Origin: Chiloscyllium plagiosum
Taxonomy: Eukaryota
Reading direction: 5' to 3'
NCBI RefSeq assembly: GCF_004010195.1
Contig: NC_057718.1
Location: 100,634,411 to 100,698,410 of the forward strand
Length of the DNA: 64,000 nucleotides
Part shown: piece by piece, positions 9,527-62,725 of the stretch
Position numbering within the stretch: the first letter of the stretch is position 1
Layout: each line of letters starts with the position of its first letter
Made by a program: the position numbers and the translations under genes
The notes under the pieces: generated by a model
The model's input: only the letters and a program-made list of their open reading frames with translations
Told to the model about the DNA's origin: nothing
The model's database searches: none

Positions 9527-11450
9527 TGACGTCGAACACTTCTGCTGCTGCCTCCGCCTCCAAGCTTACATTTTACATCAAGACTCCCTCCCAACTTCTG
9601 AGGACCCCTCTGCCCGCCTCCAACACACCCCATCCACCTGGACATCCCGTGCCAGTCTGTTACCCACCCTCGACCTCTTTATTTCCAACTGCCGCCAGGA
9701 CATTGACTGCCTCAACCTGTCCATTCCCCTCACCCACTCCAACCTCTCACCCTCACAACACGCAGCCCTCCACTCTCTCTGCTCCAACTCAAACCTCACC
9801 ATCAAACCAGCGGACAAATGGGATGCAGTGGTAGTTTGGCGCACTGACCTCTACACCGCTGAAGCCAGGAGCCAACTTGAACACACCTCCTCCTACCTCC
9901 CCCTCGACCATGATCTTACCTCCCATCACCAAACATAGTCTCCCAGACTGTACACAACCTCATCATCTCAGGGAATCTCCCACCCACAGCTTCCAACCTC
10001 AGTTTGGGAACCCCGCACCACCCGGTTCTACCTCTTACCCACGATCCACAAGCCTGACTACCCCGGCCGACCCATCGTCTTGGCCTACTCCTGCCCCACC
10101 AAATTCACCTCCACATACCTCGATACTGTTCTATCTTCCTTGGAACAGGAATTCCCCACATACATTCGGGACACCAGTCACACTTCCAACTCCTCCAAAC
10201 TTTGATTTCCCTGGCCCCCAACGCCTCATCTTCACCATGGACATCCAGTCCTTATACACTTCCATCAGCCAAGACCAGGGCTTCCAAGCAATCCGTTTCT
10301 TCCTCTCCTGACATCCCCACCAGTACCCTCCCACTGACACTCTAATTCATTTGGCTGAACTAGTCTTCATCCTCAATAATTTCTCCTTCGAATCCTCCCA
10401 CTTCCTCCAGATGAAAGAGGTAGCCATGGGCATCTGCATGGGCCCCAGCTATGCATGTCTCTTAGACTGTTCTATGTAGCTGACAATCTTCTGCAGTTAC
10501 ACCGGCATCAATCCCCACCTTCTCCTCCGCTACACTGATGACTGCATGGCGCCACCTTGTGCTCCCACGAGGACGGTGAACACTTCATTAACCTCACCAT
10601 CATATTCCACCCGACCTTAAATTCACCTGGACCATCTCTTCCTGGACCTCTCCATCTCTATCAACAGTGACCGATTCAACACTGACATTTTCTACAAACC
10701 CACCGACTCCCACAGCTCCTTGATTACACCTCCTCCCACCCTGCCTCCTGCAAAAATGCTATCCCTTATTTCCAATTCCTCCACTGCATCTGCTCCCTGG
10801 AGGACCAGTTCCACCACAGAACATACCAGATGGCCCCCTTCTTTAAAGAATGCAATTTCCCCTCCCACACGGTTGATGATGCCCTTCAGTGCATCTCATT
10901 CACTTCCTGCATCTCCGCCCTCGAACTCCACCCTCCAACCGTAACAAGGACGGAACTCCCCTGGTCCTCACCTTCCACCCACCAACATCTGTATACACTG
11001 CATCGTCCTCTGCCATTTCCGCCACCTACAAACGGACCCCACCATGAGAGACATATTTCCCTCCCCACCCCATCCGCATTCCGTAAAGACTGTTCCCTCC
11101 GCGACTTCCTCATCAGGTCCACGCCCTCCCAAAGTCGCACCCTCCCTTCCCAGCACCTTCCCCTGCCACCACAGGAACTGTAAAACCTGTAACCACACCT
11201 CCATCCAAGGCCCCAAAGAGCCTTCCACATCCATCAAGGTTTCACCTGCACTTCCACACTTCATTTACTGTATCCGTTGCTCCCGATGCAGTTTAAATTC
11301 CCCGAGACTCCTAGCCTTATTCCTGATGAAGGTCTTTTGCTGAAAACATAGATTTTCCTGCTCCTCAGATGCTGCCTGACCTACTGTGCTTTTCCAGCAC
11401 CACACTCTCGACTCTAATCTTTAGCACCTGCATTCCTCACTTTCGCCTAG
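9527..11450 (+). mobile_element. Penelope-like retroelement remnant (RT, start of GIY-YIG endonuclease, 3' pseudo-LTR)
   Basis: C-rich. Frameshifted motifs IKPADK, PGRPIV, LIFTMDIQSLYTSI, VAMG, RY(T)DD, YKPTD, then CxxxNCKTC...IYCIRCSRC. Ends in the short terminal repeat 11320-11450 with a degenerate CTGATGA...GAAA core. Confidence 0.9.
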
Positions 11451-11591
11451 TTTAAAATATTTGTCTGAACTTTTTTTTTGCCTTTCCACTGGTTCTGAAA
11501 ATGATTGATTTTTAATACTAAAGACAGCAAACTGGCAGAAAAGAATTATCTAGCTGCATATGATCAATGCACGTGTACTTTTCTGATTTAC

Positions 11592-11682
11592 CTGATTGCC
11601 CCAGTTCATCCGTGAAGAAAGAATCATTCAAATCTACATCTGACGGAATGTCATCATCACTCAGCTTCTCGCCAATTTGAAG
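11592..11682 (-). CDS. ESF1: ESF1 internal coding exon (91 nt, phase 0-1)
   Basis: AG at 11683-11684, GT at 11590-11591. Reads LQIGEKLSDDDIPSDVDLNDSFFTDELGQS, matching the conserved PSDVDLND motif. Confidence 0.93.
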
Positions 11683-11904
11683 CTACAAAGAAGTCAGAGC
11701 AGAAAGATAAATGCAATCATTTAAAAATCACTTTCCACCAAAAATCAAGTTTTGGCATGATCTTCATTGTACAATGAGATGATGTCATTCTTGTGTATAA
11801 TGTAAAAATGCAAGCTATCACCCAAAAATAAATCTCTGACTTCTTCCCATTGACAGAATAGATTGCAAGACATGAACAAATCATATTGAGAAACAATTCT
11901 CAAA

Positions 11905-19489: not shown

Positions 19490-20025
19490 GATTGGAGCTG
19501 GTGCATGTATGAAATGAGCTGCCAGAGAAAATGGTGGAGGCTGGTACACTTACAACATTTAAAAGGCATCTGGTTGGGTACACGAATAGTAAGGGTTTAG
19601 AGTGATTAGATTAGATTAGATTAGATTACTTACAGTGTGGAAACAGGCCCTTCGGCCCAACAAGTCCACACCGCCCCGCCGAAGCGCAACCCACCCATAC
19701 CCCTACATTTACCCCTTACCTAACACTACGGACAATTTAGCAATGACCTGCACATCTTTGTGACTGTGGGAGGAAACCGGAGCACCTGGAGGAAACCCAC
19801 GCAGACACGGGGAGAACGTGCAAACTCCACACAGTCAGTCGCCTGAGGCGGGAATTGAACCCGGGTCTCTAGCGCTGTGAGGCAGCAGTGCTAACCACTG
19901 TGCCACCGTGCCATGATATGGGTCAAATGCTGGCAAATGGGGCTAGATTAATTTAGGATACTTGATTGGCATGGACAAGTTGAACCGAAGGGTGTGCTTC
20001 CATGCCGTACATCTCTATGACTCTA
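19490..20025 (+). mobile_element. CR1 3' UTR interrupted by an HE1 SINE
   Basis: The CR1 3' sequence ...aagggtttagag|gatatgggtcaaatgctggc... is split by the SINE at 19604-19912. Confidence 0.85.
19604..19912 (-). mobile_element. HE1-type tRNA-derived V-SINE
   Basis: tRNA-like head with A/B boxes (TGGCACAGTGG, GGTTCAATTCC), V-domain GGGTTTCCTCC.GGTGCTCCGGTTTCCTCCCA, and a (TAATC)n tail. Confidence 0.92.
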
Positions 20026-21894
20026 GCTAATAATGTACAGGACTGTATCAAAATACAAGAAGAATTGGACTTCCAAAGAAGGCAACTAAATGGCAAATTA
20101 AATTCAATACAGAGATGTATCCTAAGTTACAACATTAAACTTCAAAAAAAGTATTTTATTGGCTCTGAAGCACTGAGAGACATCAGTAGTTACAAAATGC
20201 TATACAACTGAAAGTAATGTTTTTTTCTTTTGAAATGAGAGGTGGCTCGGTTTAGTAGCATAAAGAGGCCACTAATCACTTGGAAGGAAAGGAAGATAGA
20301 GGAGCAAAGTAATCTGGGAATACAGATGCACAAGTTGTTTGAAGTAGCAACATTGATTGATATGGCCATAAAGCATGTAGATTTATCTTCCCTAAAGAGA
20401 GAAAAACTGCTGCTGCTCACTCCAATTCCAACAAGTATACTATTACACCGGCTGTCCACCATTTTTAGAAGAATTAACTTGAAACATTGTGTGGTGTCTG
20501 CTTGATAGCATTGAGGTTGTCAGTGATATAACAGGAAGTGAGTGACACTTTCCCTCAGCTAAGATGGCTGGACACACACATTGAAACAGTGGCTAGCCAA
20601 TTAGTTATGCAAGTTTGAGGAGCATAATGATTTGGCAGTAGGGGGCAGGCAGGGGATTGGCATCGCTGCTGTTGCTTCATGGGTCAAGTGCCATATTTAA
20701 AAGACACAAAGATAGGATGTATGCAAGGAGTGGTACTCTGGCAGAATCATCTGATCCCCACCCATTGATGTCTTCTCTGAGACATAGTTGAAGGTAAAAG
20801 AATGGCCCCATGGTTCAATGAGAGCACAATGTATGTTTTACTCCAGGATTATTGGGAAAGGTAGGGTGTCCTGTTTCCCAAAGATAGCCATTGAAGGCTC
20901 TCTTGCTTGTCCAGACAACCTGCTGATTTGGAGCCTAGACCCCATAATAGAATCTGGGTCTTGTGCCAAAGATTATGAATAAATCTGCTGGGTTCCACAA
21001 GGGTAAGTGGCACTTGTAGTTGCAATAAAGGTGACAATCACAAGGGTTCAAGCAGTGTAAGTGGTTGCTTTTTTTTGATTCACTCATGGGATGTGGGTGT
21101 TGTTGGCTGGGCCAGCATTCATTGCCCGTCCCTAATTGCCCTCGAAAAGGTGATGAGCCATCTTGAACCGCTATAGGCGGACCCACAATGCCATTAGAAC
21201 ATGGATTCCCCCTAGAGTGCAGAGGCATGTAAATAAGGAGATTGGGCTGTAGGCTTCAGCATCAAATGAAACATGTCCTTGCTTCCCAAACACATGCCCA
21301 CCATTCCAAAGATGCCTTTGTCCTTAGACAACCCTGCTCTCTGCCCCTTAGTCTGCAGTCTCGCTCTATACGACAGCCCTGCCCTGTTATCTTCTAAGTG
21401 CCACTATCTGGTTGAAATCACCACCTATCATCATCTTCCCTAAAGAGAGAAAAACTGCTGCTGCTCCTCTAATTCCAACAAGTATACTATCACATTGGCT
21501 GTCCACCAGTGTATGTAGTTGTGAATCTGAAAGCGTGTATTTCTCACTCACATATAACGTAATCGGAAAGATATACTTAATACAGGCAAGATTGCCCTTT
21601 AATAAGAATATGCAACATGCAGGTGCATGTCATTGGAATACTTAACTTGTCTTTGAATTTCTGCAAACTTAGTTTTATCCCACCATTGAGAAGCTGATTT
21701 TTCGCTCTCATTCAATTAAGTTCCTCTGCCTTCCAAGCTTCCTGCTTCCAGGAGCAGCGTATTAACTTATCTCATTCCACAAATGCTACCTGACCTGCTG
21801 TGTATTTTCAGCATTTTCTATTTCATTTCAGAAAACAAAAAGCAGAAACTTGGTTGGATCACACAAAGTACTGTGTACAATTTTCATTTCCAGA

Positions 21895-23059: not shown

Positions 23060-23325
23060 CAATTATTCGCTGGTTCATTTCTCAGGGTAATACCTTGGCT
23101 TATTAGAGTCAAGTAGCCTGGTTTAAAATTTAAATAATGCATAGGAATTAACTGTTAATCATCATTGAATTGATATATTCTCCATGATATTGCCTCGACC
23201 ACAATCAACTTCCCATCTAATTTACATTCTCCTTTCATCCTGTAGTTTAAATTGGTATTCTTGCGAATTGTCCTGATGAGTGTGAGATGCAAAGCTTTGA
23301 TAAAACCTTTTTTTAACAGAATTGA
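23060..23325 (+). mobile_element. Penelope-type terminal repeat remnant with a degenerate hammerhead core
   Basis: TTGTC-CTGATGA-GTGTGAGAT-GCAA-AGCT-TT-GATAA at 23268-23303. Related copies lie at 57060-57380. Confidence 0.55.
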
Positions 23326-24668
23326 ATGCAAATTGTTACAAATTGATTTTTCCCTACACTCATAAGAAACCAATTGCTTGATAGTGTTAAATAAACCAGC
23401 AAAGGGGAGTAATCAATTTTGCTTGATCACCTATTATGGCAACTTTCTTCACAAAATTATCCAAAGCATCTGGAACACATATGATGCTATTATCCTCCTT
23501 GATCTTTTGAAAACTAAATTCCCTCAGCACCTTTCATAAGAGGCCCGTTTCAATCACACATCTGCAAGATTTAGAAGAGAAAATTCCAATCCTGTGCAAT
23601 ACGCATGATTTGGCCAAATTGCTAGGCTTCTTCTCAGAAGTGTGTAAATTGAAACTTTTAAATCAGGTTGCCAAACACCCCACCCCCCACTATCTTCAAA
23701 CGTTTAAAGTATTAATTTAACAGATTGCCAGCACTTGAGTTTCAACATCCATAAAATGGAAATCACCAAAGCAATTCAGCTGGAAACTCAGGGATTTCTC
23801 ATTTTACAACTTCAATAGGAATTTGATACATTGGTTTACCCTCTTCCGATGTTGAGTTGCAGTTTATTGCATAATTCCCATTAGGCCAGACTATCCTTCC
23901 AATTTTTTTTTTAAACAGGGTCTATTTATTCTTTTCATGTAAACCATTTATTTACTGATTTTTCAACTTTCAAAGTATGTTTCACCCCTCCATCTTCTCT
24001 ATTTAGAAAAAAAGTTACAAGAGGAATATTACAATGCAGAATCGTAGACATGTACGAAAACAGGGATTTAAAAGGCTATTTCTTAATTCAAATAATTTGG
24101 ATCAGTTTGAATTTTGCTGAAATTTGGGTTAATGGACAATTTAATGAAAGGCATCATAACCCCATCATCCAGTTAACAGAAAGATCCTACCAACAATCAT
24201 GTTGAAAAGCATGAATCAAACAAGTATGAGACACTAATCCAATATTTACTTCTCTTCTGAAAATGTCCAAACAGTGAAATTAAGCATGCACATTCCTAAA
24301 CTTGACAAATTTGAATGATCAAAGTGAGTTTCCAACTTTCTGGGTGGATCAAGAAGATGTTTATTTTGCTCTAATCACAGAAGACTCTTAATGATGTTTA
24401 TCCTGGCAGTCGCACAAAGATTAAAAATATGCTGCCTGCCTTTTTTTTAAAAAAAGGCTGATACCCCAATTGTCATTCAAGTTATAAATTAAAAAGATTA
24501 TTTAAGCATGGGACGTGGTTTTGAAGTAAACAGAACGGTCTTTGGGGACCAGCCAATATTTGCTACTCACCAGAAATTTATCGTATTTGTATCAAGGATC
24601 ACCAACTTTGCCTCATTTTCTTTGCAATGAGGAGGAAATAAGATATCAACATTATAAATTATAATTAC

Positions 24669-24811
24669 CTCCTGATCTTCAGTTTTCGTCTTTTTCTTTC
24701 TCTTCTGTTGCCTTTTCTCTTTTTTCTTCTCCAAGTATTGTTCCCATGGAGTCAGTACATTACCTTTCTCTATTTTCTTCTTTACTATTGCTTCTGTTGT
24801 TTCTTTCAGGC
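24669..24811 (-). CDS. ESF1: ESF1 internal coding exon (143 nt, phase 1-0)
   Basis: AG at 24812-24813, GT at 24667-24668. Reads (G)LKETTEAIVKKKIEKGNVLTPWEQYLEKKKEKRQQKRKKKTKTEDQE. Confidence 0.95.
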
Positions 24812-25479
24812 CTGAAATAAGACAGGACATTTTTAACTGCATGCTAAGATATACAAAATGCTTCGGTGGTTGACAGAGGCTCCAGTTTCAAAATTCAATT
24901 ATAATGCAAAATGTTACATGATATGAAGTCATCAGGCATCACAGCATCTGAATGATGTGAAGAATTGCAAAGAATGGCCATTAAAGGTGTTCCTATGGAG
25001 TGTGGACACTGCACTGCCCTGGTGGTTCTTTCAGATTAGGCCTGCAGAATCTGTTGCTGTGGTCTCTTTGGGCAATGCAGAGTAAAAAGGACAAATCTCC
25101 TTTCCAGCACCCCGTCTACCAGAGCCTTCAGGCCCCTATGGATGAAGTGGTCTGATGATTTCCCCCCTCCTAGCATTGTCTTTTGGAATTTTACTGCCAA
25201 AAACAATGTGCAGTTACTGGCTGGCAGCTTCTGAAATGGTGAGCAATTGGGGTTTAAATATGGTAGTCTTGGAGTGAGTTTCAGAAGATCCTGGCATGGG
25301 TGGATTTTGCCACCCCTGCTGATCACAAGATTGCAATGCTTTGGAGGAGTGATCCATAATTAACAATGTGAACATGGGAGAATTGTGAGAAAAAAGTTGC
25401 CATGTTTCACGGCGGGAATCCTGCCATGAAACTTCCCAAAATCAATACTTTTCTAAAATACAGGAAGGTTCAGCCCATT

Positions 25480-28400
25480 ATATGGGTAGGAAAGATAGAC
25501 AGGATTTATGATTACTTGGAAAACCATAGTTTGATTAGAGATAGTCAGCATGGTTTTGAGAGGAGCAGGTCATGCCTCAAAAACCTTATTGAATTCTTCG
25601 ATGATGTGACAAAACACGCTGATGAAGGTAGAGCAGTGGATGTGGTATACATGAATTTTAGCAAGGCGTTTGATAAGGTTCCCCATGGTAGGCTCATTTA
25701 GAAAGTGAGGAGGAATAGGATACAGGGAGACCTGTCTGTCTGGATACAGAACTGGCTGGCCCATGGAAGACAGAGGGTGGTGGTAGATGGTAAGTATTCA
25801 GCCTAGATGTAGGTTTGCTCGTTGAGCTGGAAGGTTCTTTTTAAGACGTTTCATCACCATACTAAGTAACATCATCAGTGAGCCTCTGGCGAAGCACTGG
25901 TGTTATGACCTGCTTTCTATTTAGGTTTCCTTGGGATCCAGCATTCAGCCTGAAGCTCGGTGGTCAGTGGTGTTCCACAGGGATCAGTTCTGAGACCTCT
26001 GCTCTTTTTGATTTTTATAAATGACCTGGATGAGGAAGTGGAAGGGTGGGCTAGTAAATGTGCCGATGACACAGAGGTTGGTGGAGTTGTGGACAGTGTG
26101 GAGGACTGTTGTAGGTTGCAACGAGACATTCATAGGATGCAGAACTGGGCTGACAAGTGGCAGATGGAGTTCAACCTGGAAAAATTTGACATCATTCACT
26201 TTGGAAGGTTGAATTTGAATGCAGAATACAAGGTTAAAGGCAGGATTCTTGGCAGTCTGGAGTATAAATGTCCATAGATCCCTCAAATTTGCCACCCAGG
26301 TTGACAGGGTTGTTAAGAAGGTGTATGATGTGTTGGCTTTCATTAACAGGGGATTGAGTTTAAAAGCCACAGGGTTATGCTGCAGCTCTGGTTGTGTCCT
26401 GGTTAGACCACACTTGGAATATTGTGTTCAGTTCCGGTCGCCTCATTATAGGAAAGATGTGGAAGCTTTAGAGAGTGCAGAGGAGATTTACAAAGAAGCT
26501 GCCTGGACTGGAGAGCATATCTTATGGAAAAGCTTGAGGGACCTAGGACTTTTCTCATTCTCACACTCAGAGTCATTGAGATGTACAGCACAGAAACAGA
26601 CCTTTCAGTTCATCTCGTCCATGCCAACCAGACATTCTAACCTAATCTAGTCCCATTTGCCAGCACTTGGCCCAGATCCCTTTAAACCCTTCCTATTCAT
26701 ATATCCATCCAGACGCCTTTTAAATGCTGTAATTGTACTAGCCTCCATCATTTCCTCTGGCAGCTCTGTGAAAAAGCTGCCCCTTAGGTCCCTTTTATAT
26801 CTTTATCCTCTCACCCTAAACCTATGTCCTCCAGTTCTGGACTCCCCCACCCCAGAGAAAAGACCTTATCTATTAATCCTATCCATGCCCCTCATGATTT
26901 TATAAACCTATAAGGTCACCCCTCAGCCACCAACACTCCAGGGAAAACGGCCCCAGCCTATTCAACGTCGTCCTACAGCTCAAATCCTCCAAGCCTGGCA
27001 ACATCCTTGTAAATTTTTTCTGAACCCTTTCAAGTTTCACAACATCCTTCTGATAGGAAGGCCAGAATTGCATGCTATATTCCAAAAATGGCCCAACCAA
27101 TGTCCTGTACAGCCGCAAAGTGACCTCCCAACACCATATTCAATTCTCACTCACTCTTTCCTTAAAAAAAATGGTATTATGTTTGCGACTTTCCAAAAGT
27201 ATCCTGGCAGGTCTACTGGAGTTTATCAGCTTTGGAGCAAAGAAGAATGAGAGGTAACCTGATAGAAGTATACAAGATGTTGAGAGGCACAGATAAAGTG
27301 GATAGCCAGAGACTTTTTCCCATGGCAGAAATATCTATCACGAGGTAATTGGAGGAAGGGTTAGGGGAGATTTCAGCGGTCAGTTCTTTTGGATCAGAAA
27401 TTGACTAGCTTAAAGAAGACAGAGGGTAATGGTTGATTAGAAATGTTCATCCTGGAGCTCAGTTAGCAGTGGTGTGCTGCAAGGATCTGTTTTGGGACCA
27501 CTGCTGTTTGTCATTTTTATAAATGATCTGGACAAGGATGGGTTAGTAAATTTGCGGCTGACAGGAAGGTAGGCAGAGTTGTGGATAGTGTGAAAGGGTG
27601 TTGTGGGTTACAGAGAGACATAGATAAGATGCAGAGCTGAGCGGAGAAATGGCAAATGGAGTTAAAGGCGGAAAAGTGTGAGGTAGTTCACTTCAGAAGA
27701 ACTAACAGGAATACAGAGTACTGGGCTGACGGTGAAACGTTTGGCAGTGTAGATGAACAGAGATCTGTGTCCAGGTGCACAAATCCCTAAAAGTTGCCAC
27801 CCAAGTTGATAGGGTTGTTCAGAAGGCATATGATGTATTGGCATTTATTGGTAGGGAGATTGAGTTTCAGAGGCACGAGGTCATGCCTCAGCTGTACAAG
27901 ATACTGATAAGGCCACACCTGGGGTATTGTGTACAGTTCTGGTCATTATAGGAAGGATGTGGAAGCTTTGGAAAGGGTTCAGAGAAGATTTACTAGGATG
28001 TTGCCTAGTATGGAAGGAAGGTCTTATGAAGAAAGGCTGAGGGAACTGAGGCTGTTTTTGCTGGAGAGAAGAAAATTGAAAGGTGCTTAATCAGGGCTTT
28101 TAAGATAATCAGAGGGTTAGATAGGGTGGACAGTGAGAGCCTTTTCCTGGGATGGTGAAGGCGAACATGAGGGGACATAGCTTTAAATTGAGGGGTGATA
28201 GATCTTGGGGATAGGTTCTTTACTCAGAGTATAGGGGTGTGGAATGGCCTGCCTGCAACAGTAGTAGATTTGCTGATGTTAAGGGCATTTAAATGGGCAT
28301 TGGACATCCTTAGGGACAATAATGGAACGGTGTCGGTTAGATGGGCATCAGATTAGTTTCCCAGGTCGGCGCAACATCGAGAGCCGAAGGGCCTGTACTG

Positions 28401-31584: not shown

Positions 31585-31885
31585 TCAAAAACAGAAATTG
31601 CTGGAAAAGCAATTCCTCAATATAGTTTGAGAAAGTTCTGAACAAGGATCACTCGATCCGAAATGTTAACACTGATTTATTTGCACAGATGCTGCCAGAC
31701 CTGCTGAGCTTTTATGCAATTTCTATTTTCGTTTCTGACTTACAGCATCCACAGTTCTTTTGGTCTTTTAACTGTTTTTATTCTTCCTTTCCTAAATTAA
31801 TTTTACTTGAGTTCCAAAGAAGAATTACTGGATTTGAAACGTTAATTCCATTTCTTTCTCCCCTAATGCGACCAGACCTGAGTTT
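31585..31885 (+). mobile_element. Penelope-derived short repeats (two degenerate hammerhead cores)
   Basis: AGTT-CTGAACA-A-GGATC-ACTC-GATCC-GAAA-TG-TT-AAC at 31634-31670, followed by cagatgctgccagacctgctgag. A second decayed copy starts near 31810. Confidence 0.7.
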
Positions 31886-31936: not shown

Positions 31937-32261
31937 TTAGATTAGATTAGATTAGATTACATTACAGTGTGGAAACAGGCCCTTCGGCCCAACAAGTCCA
32001 CACCGACCCGCCGAAGCGAAACCCACCCATACCCCTACATTTACCCCTTACCTAACACTACGGGCAATTTAGCATGGCCAGTTCACCTGACCCTACACAT
32101 CTTTTGGACTGTGGGAGGAAACCGGAGCACCCGGAGGAAACCCACGCAGACACGGGGAGAACGTGCAAACTCCACACAGTCAGTCACCTGAGGCGGGAAT
32201 TGAACCCGGGTCTCAGGCGCTGTGAGGCAGCAGTGCTAACCACTGTGCCACCGTGCCGCCC
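31937..32261 (-). mobile_element. HE1-type V-SINE, full length, young
   Basis: Complete head GGGCGGCACGGTGGCACAGTGG, V-domain and (TAATC)n tail. Near-identical to the copies at 19604 and 47442. Confidence 0.95.
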
Positions 32262-38734: not shown

Positions 38735-39575
38735 CAAAATTGTTGGAAAAATTCAACTGTTCTGGCAGCAGCTGGGAAAAGACAGCAGACTTAACGTTTC
38801 ATGTCCAGTGCCCCTTCTTCAGAACTGTTCTTATTTCTGATTTCAGCATCTGTGGTTCAGAAGATCATGACAGTACGGAAGTAGGCCATTCAGCCCATAC
38901 CACCCCTGTGATGAACATCACACCCAGACCCATCCACATCCCATAACCCTACATTTCCCATGGCTAATCCACCTAACCTACAATCCCTGGACACTATGGG
39001 CAATTTAGCATTACCAAACCACCTAAATAGCATATGAAATCGTAGAGATGTACAGCACGGAAACAGACCTTTCGATCCAACTTGTCCATGCCAACCAGAT
39101 ATCCTAATTTAATCTAGTCCTATTTGCCAGCACTTGGCCCATATCCCTCTAAACCCTTCCTGTGTAAATTCGCTGCTGTGTCAGACAGCAGTGCAGGTTT
39201 CTTTCTCTCTCACTGACCATGTGGTCTTTGCCTTTGTCTCTCTTCCTCCTTTTTTAAAGTGTCATTCTTTTGATATTTTTCCCTCTAAAGTTGCAAAACA
39301 ATGCAGCAACTTATAATTATTGCTCCTGGAATTCGAGGAAATCAGTTCCAATACCTCAAAAAAGACACTGCTCTTACAGCCACAATTCTTTCCCATCCTG
39401 CATTTGGATTACCCAGAATCCTGTGGGAAGAAACCAAAGCACCTAAAGGAAACCCACGCAGACATGGGGAGAACATGCAAACTTCAGACAGGCAGTTGCC
39501 TGAGGATGGAATTAAACCTGGGTCCCCGCACTGTAAGGCAGCTGTGCTAACTACTGAGCAACTGTGCCGTCCTTC
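38735..39575 (-). mobile_element. Composite: Penelope short repeat (38735-38830), split old HE1-like SINE (38865-39030, 39420-39575) and a CR1 3' UTR piece (39035-39160)
   Basis: Each segment matches more complete copies elsewhere in the window. Confidence 0.7.
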
Positions 39576-42500: not shown

Positions 42501-42976
42501 GAGAATGGGGATAGGCCAGGAAATATTTTGCATGTCTGACTTGGAAAAAGTGTGCACCCCAATCCATTACTGAAATTAGAGACAGTGCTGGGGTCCTTAC
42601 ATACAATGCCAAAAGGGTTAATGAGGCTTTTCGGAGTTTTTACTCTGAATTGTATTGGTCTGAAGGTTGCGAGGACAGGTGAGCAAAGATGGAAACCTAT
42701 TTTTAAGAGCTTGGGCCTCCCAGGGGTAACCTTGGAACAGTCCTCTTTCCTTAATGCCCCCTTGACAGTTCAGGAAACACAGCAGGCAGCTCGGCAACTC
42801 TAAAGTGGGAAAGCGCCTGGCCTTGATGGTCTCCCAGGTGAGTTTTACAAGGAGTTTATAGGGATCCTGTCAGGCCGATGTTTGAAATGCACAATCACTC
42901 CTATATGCCTACCACCATCTTTGCAAGAAGCTAATATTTCCCCAATTCTTAAGAAGGGGAAGGTTCCTGAGGATTG

Positions 42977-43865
42977 TGGGTTATTAAGTTTACAGATGAT
43001 ACTAAAGTCAGTGGAATGGTGGGCAGTGTGGAAGAATGTTGTAGGTTGCAGGGAGACTTGGATAAACTGCAGAATTGGACTGAGAAGTGGCAAATGGAGT
43101 TCAATGCAGCTAAATGTGAGGTGATTCATTTTGGGAAGAATAGCAGGAAGGCAGAATACTGGGTCAATGGAAAGATTCTTGGTAGTGTGGATTTTTGGTG
43201 TCCATGTACATGGATCCCTGAAAGTTGCCACCCAGGTTGATAGTACTGTTAAGAAAGCATACGGTGTTTAAGGTTTTATTGGTAGAAGATCCGAGTTCCG
43301 GAGCCATAACGTCAAGTTGCAACTGTAAACGCTAGTGAGACTTCACTTGGAGTACTGTGTGCCGTTCTGGTCGCCACATTACTGGAAGGATGTGGAAGCA
43401 TTGGAAAAGGTGCAGGAGATTTACCAGGATGTTGTCTGGTCTGGAGCGAAGGTCTCATGAGGAAAGGCTGAGGGACTTGGATCTGTTCTCATTGGACAGA
43501 AGGAGGCTAAGAGGGGATTTAATAGAGACATACAAGATGATCAGAGGATTAGATAGGGTGGACAGTGAGAGTCTTTTTCCTAGGATGATGACGTCTGCTT
43601 GTATGAGGGGCATAGCTGCAAATTGAGAGGTGATAGATTTAAGACCGATGTCAGAGGCAGGTTCTTTACTCAGAGTGGTAAGGCATGGAATGCCCTGCCT
43701 GCCAGTGTAGTTAACTCAGGCACATTAGGGGCATTTAAACAGTCCTTGCATAAGCATATGAATGATGATGGGATAGTGAAAGGTGATGGGCTTAGATTAA
43801 TTCACAGGTCGACGCAACATCGAGTGCCGAAGGGCCTGTTCTGTGCTGTACTGTTCTATGTTCTA
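42977..43865 (+). mobile_element. 5'-truncated CR1 nested in L1 ORF2
   Basis: The L1 frame ...KVPEDCG|...|WPISLLNSD is split by a CR1 segment (KFTDDTK...WQMEFN...) ending in a TGTTCTA repeat tail. Confidence 0.9.
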
Positions 43866-45446
43866 CACTGGCCCATCTCGCTATTAAATTCAGATTTTAA
43901 GATTCTGTCTAAGGTTTTGGCACTGAAATTGGAGAAGGTGTTGCTCTATATTGTCAAAGTGGACCAGACAAGTTTTATAAGAGGCCATAGGTCCTCTAAT
44001 AATATTACAGGATTTCCTTAGATGCAGAGAAAGCATTTGACTAGGTGTATCTCTAGGTGAATAGCCGTATCTCTTATGTCTTAGAGCAGTTTGGGCTGGG
44101 TGGGGTCTTTGCTAAGTGGGTGGAAGTTTTATATTGCCACCCTCTGGCTGCAATCATCACCAACGGGGTAAAGTCTGGGAATTTTAGGTTCGGCAGGGGT
44201 AGTCGTCAAAGCTGCCCCCTCTCACCGTTGTTGTTTACGTTGGTGATAAGCCTCTGGCAGAGGCCATTTGTTAAAATGTCCACATAACCGCTCCAGAAGT
44301 GGGATCAAGGGCACATAAGATTACACTATATGCAGATAACGTCCTTCTGTTTTTATCGGACCAAATGACCTCCGTACCCCATCTGATATAATGTATTAAT
44401 TCATTCGGGGCTATCTCAGGATATAAGATCAGCTTTGCAAAGTGGGAGGCTATTCCTTTGGAGACCTCAAGGAAGTGCCAGAAGTTGAAGGTGGCCCTAG
44501 GTTCCCCTTTAAGTGGTCATGAGCGGGTTTCCGATACCTAGGTATTTTTATGATCCTCATGTTTGATCGGTTATTTCGGACTAACTTTGTTCACCTGCTT
44601 GACAATGTTAAGCCGGATATTAAGAGATGGGAGGCTCTTCCAATTTCGTGGTGGGGTTGAACAGCCCTTACTAAGATGAATGTCCTTCCTCGTTTGCTTT
44701 ATCCCATGTGTGTGCTCCCAATAATGTTTCCCAGGTCAACATTGCGGAAACTTATGGGTTGGTTTAGTTCTTTCGTTTGGTGTTACAGGCAGCCCCTCAT
44801 CAAACTTACTAAATTACAGTAACCTCAAGGATGGGGAGGAGTTGATTTCCCAGACATCAGGAAGTATTAATTGAGTTCCCAGCTATCCTTTATGTGCGAT
44901 AGGGCAGGTAATGATCCAGGCTCAATATGGCTGGATACTGAGGCCTCCCAGACAAAGTGCCCTCTTATTAACCTGTTGTTCATGGATAAGATGAGGACAG
45001 TTAATGGACCACTGGAAGAACCCCATTGTGATTAATACGGTCAAGGCATGGAGGGCAATGCATCAAAGTGACAGTTGCTTATCAAGACTTTGCCACTCGC
45101 CCTCATAGATGGTATGTGAGGGTTCCAACCAGGGTTCAAGCTGTGGGAAGCGAGAGGAGTTTCCAGTTTGGAAGACTTATTTGAGGAGGAGGTTATGATG
45201 TCTTTCAAGCAACTGAGCCACAAATACGAGCTGCCCAGTTTTTCCGTTTTTTTCAGGTTAGGGATTTCATCCAGAAGAAGACTACGCTTCTCACTAAGCC
45301 CTACAATTATGGAGCACATGCCCTTGGATGTTTTCACAAATATTGTGCACCACACAATAGATCTTTTATAAGACATGGTAGCCCTTTCTGAGTTATTTGA
45401 ACACAGATTTTTCTGCTATCTTAACTAGGGCATTCGTTTATTCGGG

Positions 45447-45576
45447 AGGAGAAAGTGAGGACTGCAGATGCTGGAGATCAGAGCTGAAAATGTGTTGCTG
45501 GAAAAGCGCAGCAGGTCAGGCAGCATCCAAGGAGCAGGAGAATCAACGTTTCGGGCATAAGCCCTTCTTCAGGAAT
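45447..45576 (-). mobile_element. 130-bp Penelope-derived hammerhead-bearing unit nested at the L1 3' end
   Basis: 16-bp TSD with 2 mismatches (45431-45446 / 45577-45592). Minus core ATTC-CTGAAGA-A-GGGC-TTAT-GCCC-GAAA-CG-TT-GATT. Confidence 0.85.
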
Positions 45577-46339
45577 CGTTTGTTTATTCGGGTACATATC
45601 CATCGCTCCCGTTCTTTGTTTGGGAGCTTTGCGCCGAGCATTGTTATTTTGTGTTTGTTTTTTTTTGTAACTTAAACTTATTTATTGGTGTTGTTTTGAA
45701 CATTGTTTGTTTTGTTTCATTTTATAAGGTAGGTTAATATTTAGTAGACACTAATTGTATTGTAATTTGCGTTTTTTTATTATATTGGTATTTGTTATAT
45801 TTTTTATAACTTTATACTATTGTAAAGTCAAAAAGTTTTTTTTTAACTAATAAATATATTTACAAAAAAAACAGAATGGGAAGAAAAAAGAATGCAGATC
45901 CCAAATTCAAAGCATGATCTCCTTCACCCAGGACATTCCCATTTGTGTCTATTTTCTGTTCTGGAATAGTGAGTTTTCATTATTTTCTCTTTCAGTTTTT
46001 ATTTGCTGGGGGTTCTTTATAACTATTGTGTCAGTCATTTTGTTTTTTATGCTTCGAAAGTGTTTTGGGATTTTGTTTAAAACATTGACCATACTACATA
46101 CATGTTGAGAAACCCTAAGATTACAAAACCAAACATTTTCCCATAATGTATGTCAAACTGTGGAGTGTCACCATTTCAGTGCTGTCATTCCAACTGTCTG
46201 AGACTGAGTCAGACTGTTAGCAACCAAGGTATTACATATAGCCCAAAGTGAACTTCTGATCTTCTATCCTTACAATCACTAACAGTATTTATTTTTGCCA
46301 CAGTAAATTGCCTGACTTCACCACTGCTTCAGCTCATGC

Positions 46340-47098: not shown

Positions 47099-47441
47099 CT
47101 AAAAGTAAGCAAACAAAGTAAATTCTCTGTGCCACAAGTCAGTACACAAATATGAAAAATATGATTCAAAAGGAATATATGAAATACATTTTATTAAATG
47201 TCCAGGAATTATGCCACTGGAAATGGCCAAAGACACATTCATGTCTCAGATACAGAAACTCCAAACAAATATTTTACATTTGGAAAATGCTGCTTAAACA
47301 GATAGGAGCAATGGATTCAGTAGAGTCAGCCAAGAACATGCCAAATTAAATTTAATGTAATCAAATATCAAGCTCAGCACGAAATAAAGAGAGACAAAAA
47401 CTCCATGGGTGACACTGAAGAACTCACAAACACAGGTGAAA

Positions 47442-47756
47442 GCACGGTGGCACTGTGGTTAGCACTGCTGCCTCACAGCGCCAGAGACCCGGGTTCAATT
47501 CCCGCCTCAGGCGACTGACTGTGTGGAGTTTGCACATTCTCCCTGTGTCTGCGTGGGTTTCCTCCGGGTGCTCCGGTTTCCTCCCACAGTCCAAAGATGT
47601 GCAGGTCAGGTGAATTGGCCATGCTAAATTGCCCGCAGTGTTAGGTAAGGGGTAGATGTAGGGGTATGGGTGGGTTGCGCTTCGGCGGGGCAGTGTGGAC
47701 TTGTTGGGCCGAAGGGCCTGTTTCCACACTAAGTAATCTAATCTAATCTAATCTAA
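47442..47756 (+). mobile_element. HE1-type V-SINE, young
   Basis: A/B boxes, V-domain, (TAATC)n tail; near reverse complement of 31937-32261. Confidence 0.95.
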
Positions 47757-48050
47757 AGCTAGAAGTCTCAGTTCACATTAAGTTACAACTATAGTAACTT
47801 GCCCCATCAGGTGTATGTGTGTGGTGATTATGAACAATGGTGACCAAATCTTACTGGCCTTGAGTTAAATTAACAGTGTCAATTGTGCGCATTCCAACAT
47901 ATCTCAGAACCCTGGACAGGAAGTGAGGCTAAGAGAAACATAGCTCAGTACATTTTCTAAGGTCCAAAGGCAGGCACAAGCAAGTCCCAGAAACACCACT
48001 GCTTTCAGTAGATGCTGAACCTCCTCCACCTAAATCAAATCCTTCTTTAC

Positions 48051-48213
48051 CTTGCTCTGATTCTTTTTCCTCTTCCATCTCTGCTTCATCATCTTCCTCA
48101 CTTGAAGATGCCAGGTATGCTTTGAAATCCATTTCCTCGATCTCATCCTTCTTAAACTGTTTCGTCAAGGTAGTGATACGCTCATGGTCAGTCTCATCCC
48201 ATGTCAGTTCTGC
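48051..48213 (-). CDS. ESF1: ESF1 internal coding exon (163 nt, phase 0-1)
   Basis: AG at 48214-48215, GT at 48049-48050. Reads AELTWDETDHERITTLTKQFKKDEIEEMDFKAYLASSSEEDDEAEMEEEKESEQ. Confidence 0.95.
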
Positions 48214-48479
48214 CTGCAAGAAAAAATGTGATTTCAGATTAAGGACAAGGTCTACCCTTATCACACAACAGACCTCAAAAGATTGTAATAATGTATTACT
48301 GATATCTCCTGCACTGTCTGGAGGTCATAGGCAAGATAACACTTGAAATTTGAATGGAAAGATTGATAATAGAGATCATTGCTGTTTCTAATTTATATTC
48401 ATGACTTAGATTCATGCAAATGATGCTTACTTTTGTGTTGTACTGCAGTCTCATAGGTATATAAAGGCCAGCATTCCAT

Positions 48480-50292: not shown

Positions 50293-50452
50293 GAGGAGAA
50301 AGTGAGGATTGCAGATGCTGGAGATCAGAGTAGAGAGTGTGGTGCTGGAAAAGTACAGCAGGTCAGGCAGCATCCGAGGAGCAGGAGAATCGATGTTTTG
50401 AGCATAAACCCTCCGAAACATCGATTCTCCTGCTCCTCTGATGCTGCCTGAC
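50293..50452. mobile_element. Penelope-derived short unit with an internal inversion
   Basis: Perfect 15-bp TSD TTGGTAGGGATGAAG (50278-50292 / 50453-50467). 39-bp inverted arms at 50362-50400 and 50414-50452. Confidence 0.88.
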
Positions 50453-51521
50453 TTGGTAGGGATGAAGCCAGATACAAGGGAATACAAATATAAAGAAATA
50501 CTTGAAAATTGGATTATGTTTATTCCAGCAACACAGATATAGTGGAAACTTCTAAAAGTGCTGGGAACTGATAGAATAATTGTTTCCAGTAGTTTGATAG
50601 GCAAACAACAAGGGACTGCGGATACTATGAGACTGGATCCAAGGCACATAGATAAAGCTTGGGGTCTTTATAAAACAAGTTATCAGAGTGTAAAATTCAC
50701 TTCTAAGGTGACAGGTTGATGCAGAAACAATTTTTACATTCAAGATTAGATTTAGTACATAGCTGGAGGAAAGTTGAAGAAATGTGGAAATAGGGTAGAC
50801 AAATATGATTAGAACAATTTTCTGACATGGAGGGCAAATACCTAGACACAGCGTTTGAACTAAATTAGTGTTTCCATGTTGTAACTATATTTTTAGGTTT
50901 TGGATGTGAGCATTAATAAGTAGGGTCTAACATAGCAATCTAAGTTACCCAGAACAAAGCCATTCCATTCCCTGGTAATGATCATATACCAATTAACCTC
51001 CAACACCTGTTTATGTATCTATAAATCTAAGTTTGAATAGCTCAGAGATTTAGAAGTAACATAAAAACAAAGCATTTATAACAGTGCCAAACCTTTAGTT
51101 CTATACCAAAACATTATTACTTAAAGACTGAGACACATGTTAAATCTCTGAAACACTTCACTACCAACTCTGGTTTTTAAAAGAAAACAATTTTGTTTTG
51201 GCACGTCAAACTGATAAAGCTGCATGAAATCTGCCTTGTTGCACGCTCCATTCCTTCATCTGGTCTATGTTATGCAGTTTTCTGTGTCCAAGATGTTTCT
51301 TCAAAAAAATATTCAAAATTGATGCATGTAGAAATGTAGAAAGCAAAGAATTATATCAAGTATTAATTGTTACCATAGAGACTTTATTTACTGCTTCAAA
51401 CTGATCTAATTTGATTTTCTTTATAAATTCCAAGTTCACGGTTTATGAAATGGATGATACAGTGTATATAAATACATGACCCATGTTGTTTATAAGATTA
51501 CACGCAAATGCTTTTAATTAC

Positions 51522-54754: not shown

Positions 54755-56455
54755 AACATTTTCACGCGGATAGGTGTTGGGTGTATGGAATGAGATGCCA
54801 GAGGAAGTGATGGAGGCTGGCACAATTGCAGCATTTAAAAACCATCTAGATGGGTACCTGAATTGGAAGGGTTTAGAGGGATATGGATCAAATGCTGGCA
54901 AATGGGACTAAATTTAATCAGGATATCTGGTCAGCATGGACAAGTTGGACCAAATGATCAGTTTCTGTGCTATACAGCTCTATGATTCTAACTAGGACAT
55001 GAAATTTATTTAGGCGCAAGGTATTACAATAATTTTTCAATAGAATTTTTAAGAACATGATGATGTAGAATGAAGAATCTCATGATAAGGACTACGCTAT
55101 AATAAGCAAGGAATTTCAAAAAGCAAAAACTCTTCTCTTCATCCTTGTTTAGTCAGCACTTTTGAGAGATAAGTATACCTCTGATACTGATGATTTGACA
55201 AAGCAGAAAGAGAGCTGAATTAATATGGATGTAGATTGCAGTCATGTTGCAATGAAAGAATACACAATCGTACAGCACAGGAATAGGCCCTTTGCTCCAG
55301 GATGTTGTGCTGAACATGATGCTAAATTAAGTTAATCTCTTCTGCCTGCCCTTGGTCCATATATTTTCCTTCCTTGCATTTTCATGGGATTATCTAAAAG
55401 TCCCTTATACACCCTATTGTATCTGCCTCCACCACCATCCCTGGCAGTGCGTTCCAGACTCCTACCACTGTCTGTGTAAAAACTTACCCCTCACGTTTCC
55501 TTTGAACATTCCCCTCCTGAAGAAGGGCCTGTGCCCGAAACGTCGAATCTCCTGTTCCCTGGATGCTGCCTGACCTGCTGTGCTGTTCCAGCAATAAAGT
55601 TTCAACTTTGATCTCCAGCATCTGCAGACCTCACTTTCTCCTCAACATTCCCCTCTCACCTTAAATGCATGCCCTCTCGTATCAAACATTTCTACTCTGG
55701 GGAAAAAGGTTATGATGATGAACCCCATCTATGCTTTTCATAAACTTATAGACTTCAATGAAGTCTCCCGTTAGCCTCTGTCACTCCAAAGAAAACAACT
55801 CAAGTTTTCTAGCTTCTCCTTATAGCTCGTACCCTCTAATCCAGGCAGTGTCCTGGTAAACATCTTCTACACCCTCTCCAAAGCCTCCACATCCTTAATG
55901 TGCCCCCCTCAGCTGATAGGTTCAGTGATCTTTCTAACTAACCAATCATGCCATAGCCATCCAATCAATATCATCAAAATATTTCAGATAAAAATAAAAC
56001 AATTCATACTATTCATAACTCTTTGTATTTAAATAAGCCTGGATGGTCAGATGCCTGTATTGAAAACACATTTTTATTCATGCTTAATGAGGTTGAGAGG
56101 TGACCTTATAGAGGTTTATAAATTCATGAGGGTTATAGATAAGGTGTCTTTTCCTTAGGTGAGGGGTTTCAAGACTAGGGGGCACATTTTTAAGATGAGA
56201 GGAGAAAGATTTATAAAGGACATGAAGGGCAATTTTGTTTTTACACAGAATGGTTCGAATGTGGAATGAACTTCCAGTGGAAGTGGTGGATATGGGTATA
56301 GTTACAACATTTAAAAGGCATTTAGATAAGTACATGAATAAGAAATGTTTGGAGGGATATGGGCCAAACGCAGGTAAGTGGGACTAGTTTAGTTTGGCGT
56401 GGACTAGTTGGACCGAAGGGTTCGTTTCCATGCTGTATAACTCTATGACTCTATA
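54755..56455. mobile_element. CR1 3' fragments (+ 54755-54990; - 55260-55900; + 56085-56455)
   Basis: Each matches the CR1 3' UTR and tail found elsewhere in the window. Confidence 0.8.
55517..55643 (+). mobile_element. 127-bp Penelope-derived unit with an intact minimal hammerhead core
   Basis: Perfect 12-bp TSD AACATTCCCCTC (55505-55516 / 55644-55655). CTGAAGA-A-GGGC-CTGT-GCCC-GAAA-CG-TC-GAATC at 55517-55549. Confidence 0.88.
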
Positions 56456-58005: not shown

Positions 58006-58086
58006 CTCAGGGAAGTGGTCAAAAGCCTAGTAAAGAATAAGGAGCTTCTCTAAGGAGGACCAAGGAGTCCAACAAACACCAATTAC

Positions 58087-59275: not shown

Positions 59276-60644
59276 ATATGTTTATTACATAGCACTTAAT
59301 AGCTAATTATATTACATCTGAGTCATGGGTCTCTGACAAAACCTCAGGCTAGATTTAAGAGTAAGTAGACATTACCTTTTAGATACATAAAACTTAGCAC
59401 CAAACTTTGACTTGCAACTTAGAAACTGCTTACCTCCTCGCAGAAATGGTCTTCTAGAGACCGATGGGCCTCGTTTATCTTGTGATCTCAACCTCTTCAG
59501 GGACTACTTACCTTACATAAGTCTTAATCCCTTATTTCTGTTTTTTTATTCCTCTCCTTCAATCACCTATCTAAATCAATCCTTCAATGTTGGAATACTC
59601 TCTGCTTCAATTGATAACTCCACTTGTACAATCTGTAGCCTTCACAGTCCTGTGAAAACAGCCTCTCCTGCTAGCTGTCTGTAAACTTGTACATTTAAGA
59701 TAGTGAAGTGTTAAATATTTCAAGTGATTTCATTCAACTTGTTGCTGTAAGCAGTGATCACCTCTTCAATTTAAAATTCGATGTACAGCACCCTCTGCTG
59801 GGTTAAAGTCCAGAAACAGGGATTGCAATGCGGCCAATAATCCTTTCACTAACATGGACTTTAAACTTTAGCATTAATACAGATGAGGGACAGGTAATGA
59901 AATTTACTTCATCACCATATGCAATTACATTTCTCCTTTTTAATGTCAGATCATATCCAATATTTTTAAATTAAAAATCTTTTAATTTATAAAGTACTAC
60001 AAAAGGAGCACATGTAATCGTGTGAAAATTTGAGAGATTTCTGCTCCTCTTCCCTTTCATTGAAAGGCAAAATGAAAATAAAATACACAAGAAAGGGGCC
60101 AAAATCTCAAACTGCAGAAGACACCACCTGGTCAGTTGTTCTCCGCCGGTCGGGGTGTGTGTGTGTGTGTCAGAAAAGGAAACTTTGCCAAGGGTGTAAC
60201 CCCACCCTCTCAAACAGTCCATAACACAGTAACAACAGGAGCTACTCTGTGATCAAACTTATCCAATGTGTTTATCTTATTCAAACATCCATATGGAGAG
60301 TGCTGATGTCAAATTTTCTTCTAAATGATAAACTGGTGTAAATCACTGGTTCGGTCTGAGATAGAATTTAGCTTCCAATTCTTAGCATCAATTTTAATGT
60401 CCTAAAGCAGTACAGAATCAACTTGCTGTTGGTATACTAAACTTGTAATGCCAGTAATGTAGAAGGATTACAAAAGTTGATCATGTTCTCCTTTAAGTTG
60501 AGAGGTTAAGGGAAGATTCAATACAAGTGTTTAAAATTATAATGGGTTTTAGAAAATAAGGAGAGAGTTTCCATTGGCAGGAGGGTGGGTAATCAGAGAA
60601 CACAGATTTAAGAAGCAGTGAAGGGACCAGGTTTTGTTTTATTT

Positions 60645-60940
60645 ACTCATTTACAGGATGAGAGTGTCGCTGATCAGGCCAGCATTTAATGCCCATTCCT
60701 AATTGCCCCGAGGGCAGTTAAGAGTGAACCATATCACTGTGGGTCTGGAGTCACATGTAGGCTAGAGCAGGTAAGGGTGGCAGTTTCCTTCCCTAAAAGG
60801 ACATTAGTAAACCAGATGGGATTTTCCAACAATGGATTCATGGTTTTCATCAGACTTTTAATTCCAGATTTTTACTGAATTCAAGTTTCAACACCTGCCA
60901 TGGCGAGATTTAAACACTGGTACCCAGAATATTAGCTGGT
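60645..60940 (-). mobile_element. tRNA-derived SINE (second family)
   Basis: Fuller homologue of 33250-33470 with the LINE-shared 3' tail. Confidence 0.7.
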
Positions 60941-62624
60941 TTTTAAAAAGGGCCCATCTCCTACCACTGCACAGATGGTCTGTACAGTTGATGCCATCGA
61001 TCGATCACCACCCAGCGGGTCTCCGTTCAGCTTAGCACTGGAGTCACTACCCTAGTCTCACCCTGATCAATGCTGAACCAGGTGTTCTTCTTTCCATCTT
61101 CAGGCGTCAGATCTTCTTGATGACCCTGCTCTGGAAGGTGTATTTACCCACTGAACAATCAGGAAAACTGCATCTTTTACTAGGTTTGGTCACCGCCACG
61201 TTACTGAAACAAACAATTACATGTTGTATTGCTAGCAGTGACATCAAAGGTTTCATAACTGCACAGGTGGTGATGCAAATACAGCTTGTTTTTAAAGGCA
61301 GCAAGGTGTTATGGCCTAGGGCATTCTGATTGAAAGGGGACTGGAAGCAGATTTTAAAGTAATAATTAAAAGGGAATTGGATAAATACTGAAGAGAAGGT
61401 TTACTGTAGAGGAGGAGACCACTCAGCCCATTGTGTAAATTCTGCCTCTCTGTGCAGCTAATTCCATTGCCCTGCCTTTTCCTGGTAGCTTTGCATGTTG
61501 TTTGTGTTCAGATAATTATCCAATTTCCTTTTTAAAAGCCACAATGGAAACTGTCTCCCCCACACTCTCAAGCTTTGTAGAACCTAATCATTCACTCTGT
61601 TTAAAACAAGTTTCCTTCTGGGTCATCTTTTGCTATTTGCTTTAAAAACATTTTAGGACGTTATGGCAATAAAGCAGTGGAATGGAACTAATTGCTTAGC
61701 TCTGAAACATCAGGCACAGACATGATGGGCTGATGGCCTTATTTAGAGCTATGATTTATTTATCAGGGTAATATGTCAATGAACATGGAGGGCAACATTT
61801 TAGCGGATGAATAGAGATTTTCTTACTCCCTTTATTCTGAGATGCACAATGCCATTAGAGATCTGCCCATCAGCACTGATGACTTTCTTGTGATGTTCAG
61901 TACTTCACCCAATTAGATTAACATGGTTTTTTTAAAAAAATAATTCCATTCTAATCATTCTCAAACATCAATATAACCTTAGACTGCTCTTTGATACATT
62001 TCATCTGTGCATTCCTTGGAAATAAAACCATTCCTTGGGGAGAAACCAGTAAGTAACATGACACTGTAACATTCACCAAGTTCACAACATCGAAATGCTA
62101 ATTTGTTCCACACACAGAAGACAAAGCCATAAGGCCAGCTTATACTCCCATACCACAATTACACAGAGAGAGGAAAATGCAGAGTTAATGTGGCTGTCTG
62201 ACAATGTAGAGGAACTTCCCAGTATTCATGATCCTTGCTGGAGACACCACTACCACACTCGTGGCACCAAGTTAAATACTTACATGAGTTTTCCCCTCTT
62301 TATTGTTTAATGAAAATGCCATGGCAACATTCCAAATCCACAATGGATTGATATCACAGACATTTAAAGACAGAAGACAGCCGATTCAGCCCAGTGCTTC
62401 ACGCTAGCTACACTAACCCATGTTCACATTCTAAAATATTGTGATTTCTGATCACCCCCACTACATCAAAATTTGTGTTCACTTCTCCAAGTCCAATTTT
62501 TAAAACTGACACTTTCTCCTGAATTCTGCTCCCTCCGTCATACAAGTGTTCCCCACGATCAAAGAATGGCTTCCCATGCCTCTGATTATTGTGCTCCTAT
62601 TGAGTGAGGAGATTGGTAAGGAGA

Positions 62625-62725
62625 ATGCAAAAATAGAAATTGCTGGAAAAGCTCAACAGGTTTGGCAGCAGCTTGGAGAAAAATCACAGTTAATATTTCA
62701 GGTCGAGTGACCCTTCCCCAGAACC
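62625..62725 (-). mobile_element. Penelope-derived short repeat with a degenerate hammerhead core
   Basis: Minus strand GGTT-CTGGGGA-A-GGGTC-ACTC-GACCT-GAAA-TA-TT-AACT at 62688-62725. Confidence 0.7.

Follow-up and report, generated by a model that had tools for sequence, protein, structure and literature searches.

A 64-kb stretch of the 3.56-Gb genome of Chiloscyllium plagiosum (positions 100634411-100698410 of contig NC_057718.1; hereafter 'the window', meaning this whole stretch, in whose own numbering local coordinates are given) holds a dispersed set of short repeats that carry hammerhead ribozyme motifs and belong to Penelope-like elements. These repeats are almost certainly stubs of ordinary Penelope-type elements. 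We consider it likely that they were laid down as run-off complementary DNAs (cDNAs) by the parent's enzyme on uncleaved RNA, and rather probable, judging from copy ends and promoter-like boxes, that the RNA of the element starts at the first base of the ribozyme. The feature is real and of a known kind; neither the element type nor the ribozyme is new, and what the analysis adds is the spacing of a TATA box, a modest and testable contribution on the position of the RNA start.

Minimal hammerheads as part of coding elements

By the criteria of sequence, the repeats are minimal type I hammerhead motifs of Penelope-like elements. The majority letters of their families (lettered A to H) preserve the core (C3-A9, G12-A15.1 and U16.1-H17), a short stem I, a stem II and an extra base after A9, together with a palindromic stem III remnant (ACGT or AGCT), so that the conserved core and palindrome claimed in the original prediction, made from the letters of the window, are upheld at family level. 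It had also held that the helices differ between families yet stay paired, with which the majority letters of families A, B, C, F and G agree: their first stem I pairs are C-G, U-A and A-U, their fourth stem II pairs are of all four kinds, and the 3:8 pair, C3-G8 in the other four, is U3-A8 in family C (759 exact copies). The covariation test was confined to stem I and the 3:8 pair in these five families (family E, with one copy, and family D, with none in the pattern, were dropped), because the stem II letters had served to pick the families. Across the five, 22 of 25 unforced pairs do pair, against a shuffle mean of 13.4, a level matched by 1 in 200,000 shuffles; the shuffle ignores relatedness, so this figure is taken as support and not as a probability. 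A further abundant family, F, with A at H17 and an AGCT palindrome (e.g. L185, L187 and L163), has no member in the window.

Extrapolated genome-wide figures come from 120 position-picked 10-kb stretches of large contigs, comprising 1,146,208 non-N bases. In this sample a strict hammerhead descriptor gave 46 matches, 34 of them with the stem III palindrome, versus 3, 0 and 0 in three dinucleotide shuffles, and by extrapolation ~140,000 intact motifs genome-wide. A profile for the shared downstream motif gave 257 'arms' versus 2 matches in one local shuffle, which extrapolates to ~0.8 million arms, with 2.5% of the sampled DNA covered. A 30-letter pattern covering two young subfamilies has 27,148 exact matches in the whole genome, and the exact counts are 104 for family B and 759 for family C. 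The 11 core letters survive in 41 of the 59 family A copies that extend to the start, and in 22 the palindrome does too.

About ten hammerhead repeats had been predicted in the window. They are present at those places, with the quoted stems found, and the loci number 12; of these, only the copy with C3 at 45572 passes the strict descriptor (30 window shuffles gave a mean of 0.1 and a maximum of 1). The positions first quoted mostly mark the GAAA and not C3, and the composite stem I then proposed, GATTC/GAATC, had to be abandoned, being absent from every family majority: family A pairs ATTC with GATT (leaving a U.U mismatch) or with GAAT. Nor did the proposed check against Rfam find the motif, since the 18 matches reported for the window up to E 10 include no hammerhead family. 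In the predicted fold of the intact window copy stem II is formed almost always and stem I with a pairing probability of ~0.14, which, in this model, would suit a motif dependent on a partner. One might argue from the missing Rfam match, the single intact copy among 12, the weakly paired stem I and the lack of a cleavage footprint in copies or reads that the motifs are chance, or no longer ribozyme-like and conserved through promoter or coding constraint only; the 22 of 25 unforced pairs, the exchange of C3-G8 for U3-A8 in family C and the palindromic ACGT/AGCT make this very improbable. We suggest instead that the parent lineages probably had a functional ribozyme, assisted by dimerisation or protein, and that it has decayed neutrally in the stubs.

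The motif is physically tied to coding sequence. Among 32 remnants of Penelope open reading frames (ORFs) in the sample (the window's own included; five match the module itself), 24 have the module at most 700 bases downstream, and the subfamilies of the window copies at 45572 and 55517 are among these modules. Copies behind a Penelope ORF end occur in family A, in B (L315, L319, L322 and L328), in C (L374), in D (35454) and in G, the last with an ORF end that we take, from its motifs, to be of Poseidon type. The module also precedes the ORF start, the conserved downstream motif being the start of the reading frame: the distance to the next ORF motif is 103, 112, 115 or 127 in 22 of 24 readable arms, a single phase from the anchor ATG. 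Its order is an AT-rich box, 31 bases, the first stem I base, the core, the ORF start codon (with the ORF beginning ~16-25 bases past the cut site), a hairpin and two 3′ ends, which lie ~39 bases apart in the copies and bound a 'tail'. Read in this way, the module is almost certainly the pseudo-long terminal repeat (pseudo-LTR) plus the first ORF codons of ORF-bearing Penelope-like elements.

Two window cores had been placed at the ends of Penelope ORFs, and both placements hold. The core at 11323 follows a 1.8-kb remnant whose relatives carry reverse transcriptase (RT) and GIY-YIG matches; that at 35454 follows a 15-codon ORF end, which is the window's best C-terminal profile match, weak alone (E 0.018). 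Searched against Pfam, the six window ORF pieces of the Penelope remnant had no match, and the RT and GIY-YIG matches on the relatives (L129/L130) are below the curated cut-offs. The remnant and L129/L130 do share a Cys linker (CHRRNCKTC-type) between RT and GIY-YIG. Such a zinc-finger-like linker before a C-terminal GIY-YIG is described as a mark of Neptune elements (PMC8557442), and by this criterion the window remnant would be of Neptune type. No intact full-length element was found among 20 stretches around long-frame matches, several of the long frames being N runs. At L356:1340-2150 there is a partial tandem, in which a module, ~330 bases of ORF start, a piece of ORF end and a second module succeed one another; this is a small, internally deleted unit with both pseudo-LTRs.

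The short repeats had originally been seen as several independent non-autonomous, retrozyme-like families, which would mean that short 'masters' are amplified in trans, perhaps through self-cleaved or circular RNA. We regard this as improbable. It is true that short copies outnumber long ones (113 of the 138 family A arms in our 5′-end count, which is 146 minus 8 limited by N gaps, start downstream of -32), that they have sharp ends and target duplications, that one weakly supported group on the tree consists of 8 old copies, all of them short, and that tandem retrozymes are reported from one chondrichthyan (Li et al. 2026 preprint). The stubs, however, lack the upstream box and do not end at the cut site, and family A's common loop variants include both short copies and long, ORF-side ones. 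Among the 257 arms, 114 are head-to-head, 129 solo and 10 tail-to-tail, and only 7 have a same-strand neighbour within 300 bases; many copies carry target duplications, of variable length, or an inverted second arm, and head-to-tail arrays, nearly absent in the sample, are absent from the window. A family A tree (87 columns) with 31 long and 44 short copies shows 20 changes of the short/long label, against a shuffle mean of 24.1 (26-28 of 500 shuffles were as low); 40 of the 75 copies bear the label of their nearest neighbour (shuffle mean 38.1), a null result. Because of the ORF links in families A, B, C, D and G, the interleaving of short and long copies and the solo or head-to-head arms, we see the stubs as by-products of successive coding elements and not as retrozymes.

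Two further observations concern the arrangement of copies. The inversion junctions of L010, L012 and L018 contain short head-to-tail, ribozyme-only repeats, as from slippage between similar stem I strands, and at L232/L233, L089/L158 and L177 nearly identical insertions recur at a second place with matching flanks, which points to local duplication or to passive copying within a larger repeat.

The 5′ edge and the proposed start of the element RNA

The 5′ ends of family A copies pile up at one position. In the set of 138, 33 lie at -1 to +1 of the first stem I base, 13 at -31 to -2 and 25 further upstream, with 15 at or past the cut site, two of these precisely at it. The per-base chance of stopping reaches 0.19 at the edge, compared with 0.006-0.035 within the ribozyme and 0.004-0.008 at distances above 10 bases upstream; of the non-inverted arms, 16 of 72 start at the edge. 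Over the whole genome, the position before stem I is not the element's C in 7,516 of the 27,148 exact young motifs, and 13,669 extend at least 4 bases into the pseudo-LTR. A public contig set has loose ends that coincide with this start and with both 3′ ends. An apparent template jump to the cut site was discounted, the choice of query having selected for it.

In families B, C and F, the edge can be set beside a promoter-like box. Within the 75 bases before C3, TATA-like matches stand at -36 to -31 in 13 of 13 family B copies, at -37/-35 in 5 of 5 family C copies and at -40 to -34 in 9 of 13 family F copies, and in the long copies of B and C the start of the TATA box is 31 bases upstream of the first stem I base; in families A and B, that base itself has an initiator-like context. 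A TATA box some 31 bases ahead of an initiator A is the general arrangement of TATA/initiator promoters of RNA polymerase II, and families B, C and F conform to it. The 5′ ends of family C lie at -4 to -1 from C3 in 12 of 23 copies, and those of family F at -11 to -7 in 11 of 53, with 2 between -42 and -12; since in family F the box is 3-4 bases farther from the core and the edge 4-5 bases farther too, the edge moves with the box.

Synthesising these findings, we propose that the AT-rich box and the initiator-like sequence form a promoter for RNA polymerase II, such that the transcript would begin with the ribozyme. Reverse transcription would then start internally at the two tail sites, as it does in vitro for the Poseidon element of the anole; priming at the 5′-proximal site would run off at the RNA start after 95-135 bases, leaving a promoter-less stub, priming at the 3′ pseudo-LTR would give the longer, 5′-truncated copies that bear ORF sequence, and fold-back or template switching would account for inverted arms. 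On balance, we lean towards the broader statement that every transcript of the Neptune-type elements in this genome is headed by the ribozyme, and that transposition, through internal priming, yields mainly promoter-less ribozyme stubs.

An alternative origin for the 5′ edge lies in RNA structure or processing, whereby a ribonucleoprotein or the folded ribozyme stops the RT, or microhomology at AT(T) primes the second strand and so fixes the junction at stem I. AT or ATT is indeed common to the target and many solo junctions, the anole enzyme favours cuts at ATT (PMC11167929), and numerous ends fall within the ribozyme and at junctions of inverted arms. Against this, the edge is also found in families whose stem I starts AGTT, AGCT or ACAAC, it sits at the far (5′) side of the structure and not on the side from which the enzyme enters, and it keeps ~31 bases from a TATA box that is outside the stubs; we judge such an origin unlikely.

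Several observations weigh against a promoter-defined start followed by run-off. Of the 138 family A copies, 52 start inside the ribozyme, which run-off alone does not explain, and the family has no canonical TATA box, with TTTAT(C/T)T at the same distance in its place (72 of 82 matches at -37 to -35). In family G a TATA box is present, yet the 5′ ends do not gather where the start is predicted (2 of 33 lie between -24 and -17), and the family B peak is blurred (21 of 94 copies at -8 to -2, with about a quarter of the 94 not extendable). The label changes on the family A tree, weakly resolved over its 87 columns, lean slightly towards clustering of short and long copies. A G before stem I is more frequent than A and T together (4,544 copies versus 2,972; in the second subfamily, 44 of the first 100), but as a trace of a cap it is not clean, for of 14 solo copies that could be resolved, 9 have the G within the target duplication, the others being mostly inverted junctions, and 1 of 8 solo family C copies has it. 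The Penelope promoter of D. virilis, moreover, has no TATA box, and its start is well ahead of the ribozyme (PMC2377424, PMC4209133): it lies 46 bases before an intron (PMC2377424) that ends at helix I (PMC4209133), and a start at the ribozyme would thus differ from what these accounts give for that element. In RNA, finally, one poly(A) single-cell run, which is not a 5′-end library, showed no pile-up of molecule starts or ends on the module, the cut site included.

That run placed 1,829 reads on the module, on both strands and with a depth that falls ~fifty-fold past the tail, a pattern that fits passive transcription within host RNAs and carries no information on the start site or on cleavage. 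No circular joint at the cleavage site was seen among the joints shown in these poly(A) reads, although poly(A) libraries would miss such RNA.

Families B and C have a separate feature in the stretch that links the cut site to the ORF start (e.g. 31660-31690 (+) and L361-L380), where a pyrimidine tract ends in CAG directly before the ATG. This CAG is present in 15 of 25 family B and 7 of 8 family C copies, with AG in 24 of 148 family A copies, and in family B a branch-point-like sequence spans the cut site. The tract resembles a 3′ splice site with no donor within the predicted transcript; it could be a source of exonisation, or could reflect strand bias only.

Copies and neighbours in the window

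The 12 hammerhead-related loci of the window comprise nine with a C3 position and three that are core-less or decayed. A profile built from copies gave 11 window matches, to which 23273 and 25878 are additional, being of families without the shared downstream motif.

Two loci retain ORF sequence on their 5′ side, both on the plus strand. At 9501-11316 (+) lies the broken Neptune-type ORF (RT, CxxxxCxxC linker and the start of GIY-YIG), joined by a deletion to its 3′ pseudo-LTR, and then the family A module at 11319-11447 (+), with a decayed hammerhead (C3 at 11323) whose stem II is damaged, ORF start and tail. The family D locus at 35180-35581 (+) runs from the 15 last Penelope ORF codons (35180-35224) through a 3′ spacer to a decayed hammerhead (C3 at 35454), also with a damaged stem II, an ORF start and a tail.

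The other family A loci are a young stub with an intact motif at 45446-45577 (-; C3 at 45572) and an 11-base target duplication; a head-to-head pair of arms at 50293-50452 (strand undefined), joined within stem II and without CUGANGA, which folds as a long hairpin and has a 15-base target duplication; and a stub of the CTGT-loop variant at 55517-55643 (+), which begins at C3 and has a 12-base target duplication. In this last copy the element's own 5′ strand of stem I is absent, and the flank in its position is target duplication. Matches to microRNA families in Rfam at 50353-50460 were discarded, as they fall on the inverted pair.

Family B is represented by stubs at 31634-31767 (+), with C3 at 31638 and a core reading CTGAACA (G8 mutated); at 38728-38826 (-), with C3 at 38822, intact core letters and damaged stems, stem II among them; and at 62608-62725 (-), with C3 at 62721 and a mutated core, CTGGGGA, a short interspersed element (SINE) adjoining its 5′ end. 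B-like pieces are a core-less 3′ part of the module at 21772-21829 (+) and a strongly decayed stub at 31811-31880 (+; profile E 0.00046). There remain a family H remnant at 23250-23310 (+; edges approximate), with C3 at 23273 and the GAAA lost, and a family G (Poseidon-type) copy at 25805-25942 (-), with C3 at 25878 and a broken stem I, which lies inside a CR1 element and has a 9-base target duplication.

Exon-like frames on the minus strand suggest that most window copies lie in introns of a host gene with a NUC153 domain. Its exon matched by Pfam is at 4170-4532 (-), and further such frames are at 24570-24887 and 47932-48324; we take the gene to be ESF1-like, a name that a PDB search did not confirm, the NUC153 match being the only one among these frames to come from a search. 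The intact motif at 45446-45577 (-) is on the same strand as this gene, apparently in an intron. The window is rich in CR1-type and SINE repeats, including SINE copies with a tRNA-like head at 19631-19912, 31963-32257, 47441-47730, 62730-62929 and 63176-63439, some of them joined to an inverted second repeat. At 39970-40880 and 42800-44020 (+) are what we assume, from their motifs, to be L1-like ORF1 and RT remnants, for which Pfam gave coiled-coil matches only.

Comparison with known systems and implications

Minimal hammerheads have been described in both pseudo-LTRs of metazoan Penelope-like elements, with thousands of solo motifs ascribed to truncated elements and low activity as dimers (Cervera and De la Pena 2014, PMC4209133). 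The motifs studied here share with these the type I order, the extra base after A9, G10.1-C11.1 and the palindromic 15.2/16.2, and likewise the many covarying families, the predominance of solo motifs, the opposite-strand pairs and the U3-A8 variant. The accessible part of that account names fishes, coelacanth (~4,000) and Xenopus (~9,000) and no cartilaginous fish, compared with the extrapolated ~140,000 intact motifs here, and gives no mapping of copy 5′ ends or of a promoter. Since up to 120,000 ribozymes are reported in axolotl (PMC7229834), the number found here is high but has a parallel.

PAc, the Poseidon element of Anolis carolinensis (Frangieh et al. 2024, PMC11167929), likewise has two 3′ ends, a tail of 30-40 bases in the ORF start and a ribozyme beside the start codon; there the internal sites at which reverse transcription starts define the tail, uncleaved RNA is the main substrate, mutants of the ribozyme leave insertion unaffected, and cleavage needs protein. 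PAc differs in belonging to the Poseidon clade, in an ORF that starts in stem II and in reverse transcription starting 111-118 bases into the ORF, whereas the elements here have a Neptune-type linker and are known from sequence. The general traits of insertion by endonuclease-bearing (EN+) Penelope-like elements, namely an optional tail of 30-40 bases, an inverted 5′-truncated arm and a variable target duplication, are all present. The pseudo-LTR of Adineta vaga (Arkhipova et al. 2013, PMC3846280) shares several parts with the module here, namely a putative TATA box and initiator, the first ORF codons, an optional tail, an inverted 5′ arm and target duplications, yet the available text describes few copies, with no pile-up of stubs at the predicted start, and does not discuss a ribozyme. 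Non-LTR retrozymes (Cervera and De la Pena 2020, PMC7229834; Li et al. 2026) resemble our repeats in their type I hammerhead, Penelope connection and dispersed monomers, but are described as units of 150-450 bases, repeated head-to-tail, that carry canonical ribozymes and form circular RNA; those here are solo or head-to-head stubs of 95-135 bases with minimal motifs, contiguous with ORF-bearing elements. In the literature searched we found no report from a shark and no statement that a start site coincides with the ribozyme, though supplements or papers beyond it could hold either.

The role of the hammerhead in Penelope-like elements has been called unclear (PMC8557442). The copies indicate an uncleaved RNA template, and the RNA start is likely to lie at the ribozyme; taken together, these narrow the role of the hammerhead to the 5′ end of the message, where it might serve in removal of the cap or in control of translation or of dimerisation, rather than in excising the unit that is copied. 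If this is true, the genome of C. plagiosum would be a 'fossil map' of the sites at which the RNA and its reverse transcription start, and would hold ~100,000 intact motifs in introns and spacers. The number of intact motifs permits a statistical test of activity in vivo, and their orientation could then reveal whether minimal hammerheads cut RNA in the living animal.

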